Made by a program: the position numbers and the translations under genes
Virus record (IMG/VR): IMGVR_UViG_2529292873_000014
Strand: one strand, 5' to 3'
Origin: a virus
Taxonomy: Duplodnaviria; Heunggongvirae; Uroviricota; Caudoviricetes
DNA length: 6,065 nucleotides
Part shown: positions 5,000-6,046 of the stretch, piece by piece
Layout: every line of letters begins with the position of its first letter
How positions within the stretch are numbered: position 1 is the first letter of the stretch
Notes under the pieces: generated by a model
Seen by the model: only the letters and a program-made list of their open reading frames with translations
The model's database searches: none
Told to the model about the DNA's origin: nothing

Positions 5000-6046
5000 T
5001 TACCCGAGCACGCCGGTTGCAAAAGCGTGATCAAGAAAACGAAAAATTAAATCAACCTGGGAACCATGCTTTTCTTCGAACGCCAGCGGATCCGCATGAA
5101 GCTCGTTGTGATGCTCCCGACACAGCGGTAGCGTGAAAATATCGTGGGATTTTGTTCCCATTCCACCCTGACCATGACCAATCAGATGATGAGGATCGTC
5201 CGCTGGCTTACCACAACACGCACACGGCTGTGTCTTTACCCAGCGTGTGTATTTCTCATTTACCCAGCGGCGACGTTTAGGTCGTTTCATGAAGGATTCC
5301 GGAGACTCCGGATCAACGGCAATGCTGACCACCGTCTTTTCCTGTGGTGGGTTCTGTTGCTGGTGGGTGTGAGGCGGTAGCGCAAGATTTTTTGTGCGCT
5401 GCTTCAGTATGCTGGTGGCGGTCTGCTCTCCCGGTACGATGTCGCTTTCACGGTACACGAGCGGATTTTTTCCGCTGGTAATCCCAGCGAACGACGCGAT
5501 ACTGCCTCAGGTAGTGCGTCCGCCACCTGATTGCAGACCGCCCACCAGGATAATTCAGCCAGAGATAATTCCCGCTCCTGCGTACCGCTTATTGCGTGAC
5601 GGATGACGTCAATCATCCATGCTGCAGATTTTGTTGAGCAAGTTGCTCCAGTGATTCGATGTCTGGTCACGCAGCTGGTTGTCGCAGTGCCAGCACAACA
5701 CCATTGCGCCGGTACCGTAACGGTGAATGACGGTTTCGCTGTGATGATAATCGCCATGAGGCCACTGGCAGGATTTCACGTGACGTAATAACCAGTCAGA
5801 CAGTGCACCAGCGCCGCCAGCTGCACGAATCACCCGCTCATCGCTGAAAAATGGCAGCAGTGATTTATCTTCCGCCAGCGGCTGGCGAACAGCAGGAACC
5901 GCTCCAGATGGCAGCGCCCGCATGTTTTTCGGTTCCGGCTCCACCAGCACCCTGCCGCGATGAAAAACTGGCAATGATTCACGACCGGGCTTAAGGACCA
6001 CCAGCCCGAGTTCCGGAACCAGAACAGGTCGAAGTAATACCCGCAC
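5000..6046 (-). pseudogene. DUF968-like prophage gene (YdfU-like, Cys/His-rich C-terminus) read in three frames; frameshifted pseudogene or indel errors
   Basis: Three overlapping ORF-track pieces: 6046-5609 (frame A), 5757-5404 (frame B), 5458-5000 (frame C). A and C are the same frame (6046-5458 = 588 = 196 x 3); only about 140 nt in the middle is protein-like in frame B (WMIDVIRHAISGTQERELSLAELSWWAVCNQVADALPEAV), while frame A/C has two TGA stops there (5609-5611, 5507-5509). Total span is 1047 nt. The C-terminal part carries CACCGKPADDPHHLIGHGQGGMGTKSHDIFTLPLCREHHNELH. Confidence 0.5.

Follow-up and report, generated by a model that had tools for sequence, protein, structure and literature searches.

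Proteins of the DUF968 family are prophage YdfU/YbcO-type His-Me-finger (HNH-like) proteins whose genes typically adjoin rusA and Q (PMC5714182; PMC4118853), and DUF968 has been assigned to group 7 of the His-Me finger superfamily (PMC5714182). The lambdoid prophages of O157 strains are notorious for fragmenting and confounding draft assemblies, in which they appear as phage-related contigs (PMC7175801). The DNA analysed here (IMG/VR virus record IMGVR_UViG_2529292873_000014) includes a DUF968 gene that is split over three reading frames. The window, by which the whole stretch of 6065 nt is meant, is the complete contig AETZ01000038.1 of GCA_000187325.3, from E. coli O157:H- H2687; AETZ is the draft genome of this sorbitol-fermenting strain (PMC3271280). 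The locus is an ordinary DUF968/YdfU-type prophage gene that looks broken, and there is nothing novel about it. The split itself is probably an artefact, namely a set of consensus dropouts from prophage paralogues that were collapsed in the draft assembly.

The window represents the late-regulatory region of a lambdoid prophage that is Sp4/CP-933M-like. The gene order DUF968-RusA-Q was common to the window, O103, Sakai Sp4 and 493/89, and is the lambdoid nin-region context. Further downstream on the minus strand were a CPBP protease gene, a TrmB-like remnant, an AraC-like gene, three tRNA genes and the 5' part of a SASA esterase gene. The longest Q ORF, with a GTG start at 4635, overlapped the 3' end of rusA by 20 nt (4616-4635); with the annotated Q start the overlap was 11 nt, as in Sakai Sp4, O103 and 493/89. 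The tRNA genes (1671-1920, minus strand) form the prophage cluster ileZ-argN-argO, in which the tRNA with a CAT anticodon was called Met by ARAGORN as against tRNA-Ile in RefSeq and Sakai, and the tRNA 5'-end base at 1920 was C in the window and O103 but T in Sakai and 493/89. The AraC-like gene (1948-2661, minus strand) changed from Sp4-type to O103-type sequence at about 2315 and had one private base at 2354, and its exact product, a 237-aa AraC-like HTH protein, was on record only on AETZ01000038.1. A 131-aa ORF at 2698-3093 (minus strand) had no Pfam match and overlapped a TrmB-family regulator that is given in RefSeq as a frameshifted pseudogene in Sakai-like, 493/89 and CFSAN027343 genomes; indel differences between alleles at 2758-9, 2789, 2827 and 2850 alter the length of this ORF.

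The 6065-bp contig covers sequence that is multi-copy in O157 genomes, as a collapsed repeat would. The section from 3200 to 5380 matched Sakai prophage Sp4 at 100 % identity, as it did EDL933 and many other O157:H7 genomes, and, among the matches listed, it occurred at 4-8 places per O157 genome. The tRNA segment occurred at 9 places in the sibling strain 493/89, whose genome is closed. For the variable blocks 1900-3120 and 5386-6065 no exact match was found in 5426 complete E. coli genomes, the best identities being 98.0 % and about 95-97 %, respectively. The 2011 draft of H2687 by Rump et al. was reportedly generated by 454 pyrosequencing with Newbler.

Three overlapping ORFs on the minus strand together make up one DUF968/YdfU-family gene (Table 1). 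An earlier note on this DNA, made from the sequence alone, had recognized the three ORFs, the DUF968/YdfU-type identity and flanks lying in one frame over 1047 nt, and in these respects it was borne out: ORF A and ORF C share a frame, with 1047 nt from start to stop, and the protein obtained after repair (see below) matched profile positions 1-171 of Pfam PF06147 with 259.6 bits, the cut-off being 27.8. By itself, ORF C scored 214.2 bits against DUF968 (PF06147) and ORF B 33.6 bits, with profile positions 1-41 corresponding to ORF B residues 63-103. As the Pfam matches of the ORFs are to one DUF968 protein, the three-piece layout is not due to chance. ORF C contains the His-Me finger (HNH-like) Cys/His motif CACCGKPADDPHHLIGHG...LCREHHNELH, and a sub-threshold match to HNHc_6 lies at the same place. 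No homology was found for the out-of-frame portions of ORF A and ORF B.

Table 1. Coordinates of the DUF968 gene, its ORFs, its lesions and neighbouring features in the window
Feature	Position	Strand	Description
DUF968/YdfU-family (His-Me finger) prophage gene	5000..6046	-	1047 nt here, 1050 nt when intact
ORF A	6046..5609	-	145 aa; residues 1-130 homologous, then 15 out-of-frame residues, TGA at 5611..5609
ORF B	5757..5404	-	117 aa; homologous coding sequence 5624..5460 (55 codons) only, the remainder being out-of-frame overlap
ORF C	5458..5000	-	152 aa; C-terminal DUF968/HNH-like domain with CxxC...HH...CxxHH motif
Lesion 1	5658/5657	-	TC(N)GAA to TCGAA; wobble position of a TCN Ser codon
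Lesion 2	5625/5624	-	CTG(N)CAG to CTGCAG; first position of codon 142 (Thr, Ser or Ala in homologues)
Lesion 3	5459/5458	-	CTC(N)GT to CTCGT; wobble position of a TCN Ser codon
Third-frame stretch	5625..5657	-	33 nt encoding ESLEQLAQQNL as in homologues; absent from the account in the earlier note
A4 run (plus-strand T4)	5629..5632	-	No lesion; run of the same length or substitutions in natural alleles
A6 run (plus-strand T6)	5466..5471	-	No lesion; 7 nt upstream of lesion 3; A6 in 90/90 alleles
rusA (Holliday-junction resolvase)	4987..4616	-	Immediate downstream neighbour of the DUF968 gene
Antiterminator Q family gene	4635..4255	-	Annotated homologue corresponds to 4255..4626

The gene was aligned at the DNA level to 90 intact genes, which comprised 80 IMG/VR prophage alleles and 10 named references of 1050 nt (E. 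coli 10153, O26:H11 11368, O103:H2 12009, APEC E12049, O157:H7 TR01, K-12, E9, Sakai Sp4, CEC96047 and 493/89). The same three single-base gaps, all of them deletions in the window gene, were found in every alignment. Lesion 1 corresponds to alignment column 390 (C in 63, A in 15, T in nine and G in three of the 90 natural alleles), lesion 2 to column 424 (T in 51, G in 20 and A in 19) and lesion 3 to column 591 (C in 49, A in 27, G in 12 and T in two). At two of the sites nothing longer than a dinucleotide (CC or GG) is involved, and the third is not a homopolymer. Three reading frames are therefore used across the gene, and the losses sum to -3, so that the original frame resumes after lesion 3, the flanks share one frame and the middle looks frameshifted. 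Intact homologues have 1050 nt (349 aa and a stop) and the gene here is 3 nt shorter, contrary to the claim in the earlier note that gene length was preserved. Restoring the three bases gave a 349-aa protein with seven substitutions compared with the E. coli 10153 homologue.

As deposited, the gene is not one uninterrupted ORF of ~349 codons, since a stop is reached at codon 145 and translation ends after 145 codons. Given this stop and the fact that 90/90 natural alleles were intact, the window copy must be disrupted or mis-assembled and is not a functional member of the family as written. The stop also precedes the point at which the frame is restored, and selection therefore cannot account for the net change of -3; the deposited gene is no compensated, functional allele.

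The earlier note had explained the frame changes by two indels of opposite sign at homopolymer A-runs, read as plus-strand T-runs of four and six bases. Both runs are present, and shortening A4 to A3 together with lengthening A6 to A7 did open a single ORF with the junction peptides that had been quoted. However, this repair replaced the homologous ESLEQLAQQNLT by the non-homologous NHWSNLLNKSA and gave 348 aa, compared with 349 aa in the homologues. The alignment gave three 1-nt deletions instead, placing the frame changes away from both runs and adding a lesion, which is the outcome that the earlier note had itself named as refuting its explanation. The related suggestion that slippage-prone tracts act as a switch, with A4/A6 changes, or ribosomal or transcriptional slippage, toggling or restoring the full-length protein, can draw on the closeness of the A6 run to lesion 3 and on the fact that the two edits open the frame. 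Nevertheless, A6 was invariant across the alleles, A4 was constant in length and never the site of an indel, and the frame changes lie off both runs; the homologous protein would need three separate -1 shifts, neither an X XXY YYZ heptamer nor a long A/T run is present at any of the three lesion junctions, and the split-frame layout is kept in no homologue, all of which are single-frame. We therefore reject a homopolymer switch or programmed recoding as highly improbable. Two or three genuine short overlapping genes, which had also been put forward, are likewise rejected and are less probable still: gene callers do report ORF C (152 aa) as a gene matching DUF968, but each of the 90 natural homologues is one unbroken ORF with its end at codon 348-349, the ORF boundaries in the window fall on the private deletions, the parts of ORF A and ORF B that are out of frame are those without homology, and no homologues were found with an end at that of ORF A and a start at that of ORF C. 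Even taken jointly, a switch, recoding and separate genes carry a very small probability.

All three missing columns are three- or four-allelic in the family, and columns with at least three alleles make up only 25 of the 390 in the middle block and 105 of the 1050 in the gene. The chance that three random losses would all fall on such columns is 2.6e-4 within the block for exact placement and rises to 6e-3 with a tolerance of one column either way; the corresponding gene-wide values are 1e-3 and 2e-2. Multi-allelic placement is expected if merged copies disagree at these columns, and is not expected for random mutation or read error. In addition, the gene has three private indels and zero private substitutions, an indel-heavy spectrum that is typical of consensus error, whereas spontaneous mutations in E. 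coli are mostly substitutions. Three more 1-nt indels were unique to the window relative to five natural sequences, namely the loss of a T at 1923, 3 nt upstream of the 5' end of a tRNA (1845-1920), the gain of an A at 2827 (AA to AAA) and the gain of a G at 3089, and these may be further consensus errors.

Of the causes listed in the earlier note, sequencing or assembly error is thus the one favoured by the evidence, and the slippage switch and separate genes are not. If prophage paralogues were collapsed, reads from more than one near-identical prophage copy would have been merged into one contig, and at three columns where the copies have differing bases no base would have won the consensus, so that the column was dropped. 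Such column loss would yield three spurious 1-nt deletions with a total of -3. The underlying gene would then be an ordinary, unbroken member of the lambdoid nin region, coding for a 349-aa His-Me-finger (HNH-like) protein of the DUF968/YdfU type.

None of the lesions was found in the 90 natural alleles. For the 241-nt middle segment, the 40 best matches listed, all from complete genomes, span 244 nt and carry the three extra bases (40/40); the best identity was 95.1 %, with no record above it. In the closed sibling 493/89, the Sp4-like copy that was retrieved is an intact 1050-nt gene. Among indexed assemblies, the exact ORF C product is on record only on AETZ01000038.1, whilst an exact look-up of ORF A (145 aa) gave no match because the gene caller had run that ORF off the contig end. 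None of four repaired 349-aa variants had an identical counterpart in a collection of 15 billion proteins. DNA patterns allowing zero or one base at the lesions were absent from IMG/VR, JGI metagenomes and GTDB representatives, and complete E. coli genomes, JGI metagenomes and GTDB species representatives all lacked the 33-mer that separates lesion 1 from lesion 2. With the protein, pattern and 33-mer searches all empty, no twin of this allele is known, whether intact or broken. The allele is thus known from the deposited contig only, its middle block being a haplotype not encountered elsewhere and its 5' block being O26-type.

The middle of the DUF968 gene (window 5386-5760; positions 581-970 in loci L013-L092) is highly mosaic: the 90 alleles fall into 61 haplotypes, many of which are far from any neighbour and yet lack private sites. 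This pattern suggests intense shuffling of common polymorphisms between prophages, and the reshuffling is of mild interest for phage mosaicism.

The composition of the middle block bears on whether several copies were merged. Against a merger, its substitution pattern fits a single natural allele. Several natural haplotypes of this region are likewise 15-21 differences (4-5 %) from their nearest neighbour with zero private sites, and because natural alleles share this property, a mixture of several copies in the block is not independently proven. The block may, on its sequence, be a single genuine unsampled haplotype carrying three errors. An argument for a fine-scale mixture of two parents (O26-type and K-12/TR01-type) in the block, in which no site had failed to match one of the parents and the 51 informative sites had shown 27 switches, was withdrawn, together with the finding that a majority consensus of three alleles is nearer to the block than any allele by itself; the mixture argument was dropped because ordinary divergence among three lineages gives the same alternation and natural haplotypes in the 90-allele panel behave alike.

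A natural-looking substitution pattern would equally suit a genuine pseudogene private to H2687, in which three real 1-nt deletions had accumulated in a dispensable prophage gene, giving the stop at codon 145. Decay is common in prophage genes, and closed genomes of the same lineage have annotated frameshifted genes in these prophages (a TrmB-like gene and an ATP-binding protein). Moreover, the contig has a real deletion of 1 nt at 1382 relative to Sakai and O103, which can be taken as a genuine marker since it is also present in the closed 493/89 genome; it is this common deletion that makes 493/89 the top match for 1340-1960. A pseudogene would, however, need three independent non-homopolymer 1-nt deletions within 200 nt in the company of zero private substitutions, all of them on multi-allelic columns (a chance of about 10^-3 to 10^-2), and would arrive at a net -3 after a premature stop without selective reason. 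The lesions were, furthermore, missing from the retrieved 493/89 copy, from the 90 alleles and from the ORF look-up. Because the block may be a single haplotype, and because the 1382 deletion demonstrates that not every indel in the contig is an error, a pseudogene is retained as an unlikely explanation and not as a negligible one. If true, it would be one more decaying prophage gene in one strain, with no wider consequence.

Real deletions might also have come from a process that targets sites where diverged prophage paralogues differ. Faulty heteroduplex mismatch repair during recombination between paralogous DUF968 alleles is a candidate for such a process, and an origin of this kind would put all three deletions on multi-allelic columns; we consider it very unlikely. 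Consensus dropout in a collapsed assembly remains our preferred reading, and the case is mainly a warning: where short prophage contigs from early drafts seem to contain compensating frameshifts, these need to be checked against intact homologues and closed sibling genomes before a switch or recoding is proposed.

Compared with known systems, the locus is closest to YdfU of the Qin prophage of E. coli K-12 and to ECs_1082 of Sakai Sp4, which belong to the same DUF968 family, have the same 349 aa as the repaired protein and the same C-terminal Cys/His HNH-like motif, and occupy the same site directly upstream of rusA and Q. In its 3' 385 nt the window gene differs from the Sp4 copy by a single base. 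Unlike YdfU and ECs_1082, the deposited gene is short of three single bases and is truncated. It resembles phase-variable or programmed-frameshift genes (dnaX, prfB and IS3 transposases) only superficially, in using more than one frame and in having A-runs nearby, and differs from them in that there is no tract-length variation, no slippery site and no conserved frame layout, and in that three shifts would be needed. What it has in common with consensus indel errors in collapsed-repeat contigs of early pyrosequencing drafts is a short stand-alone contig of multi-copy prophage sequence, private single-base indels without private substitutions and dropouts at copy-variable columns, with the difference that the classic miscall of a long homopolymer is not what is seen here.
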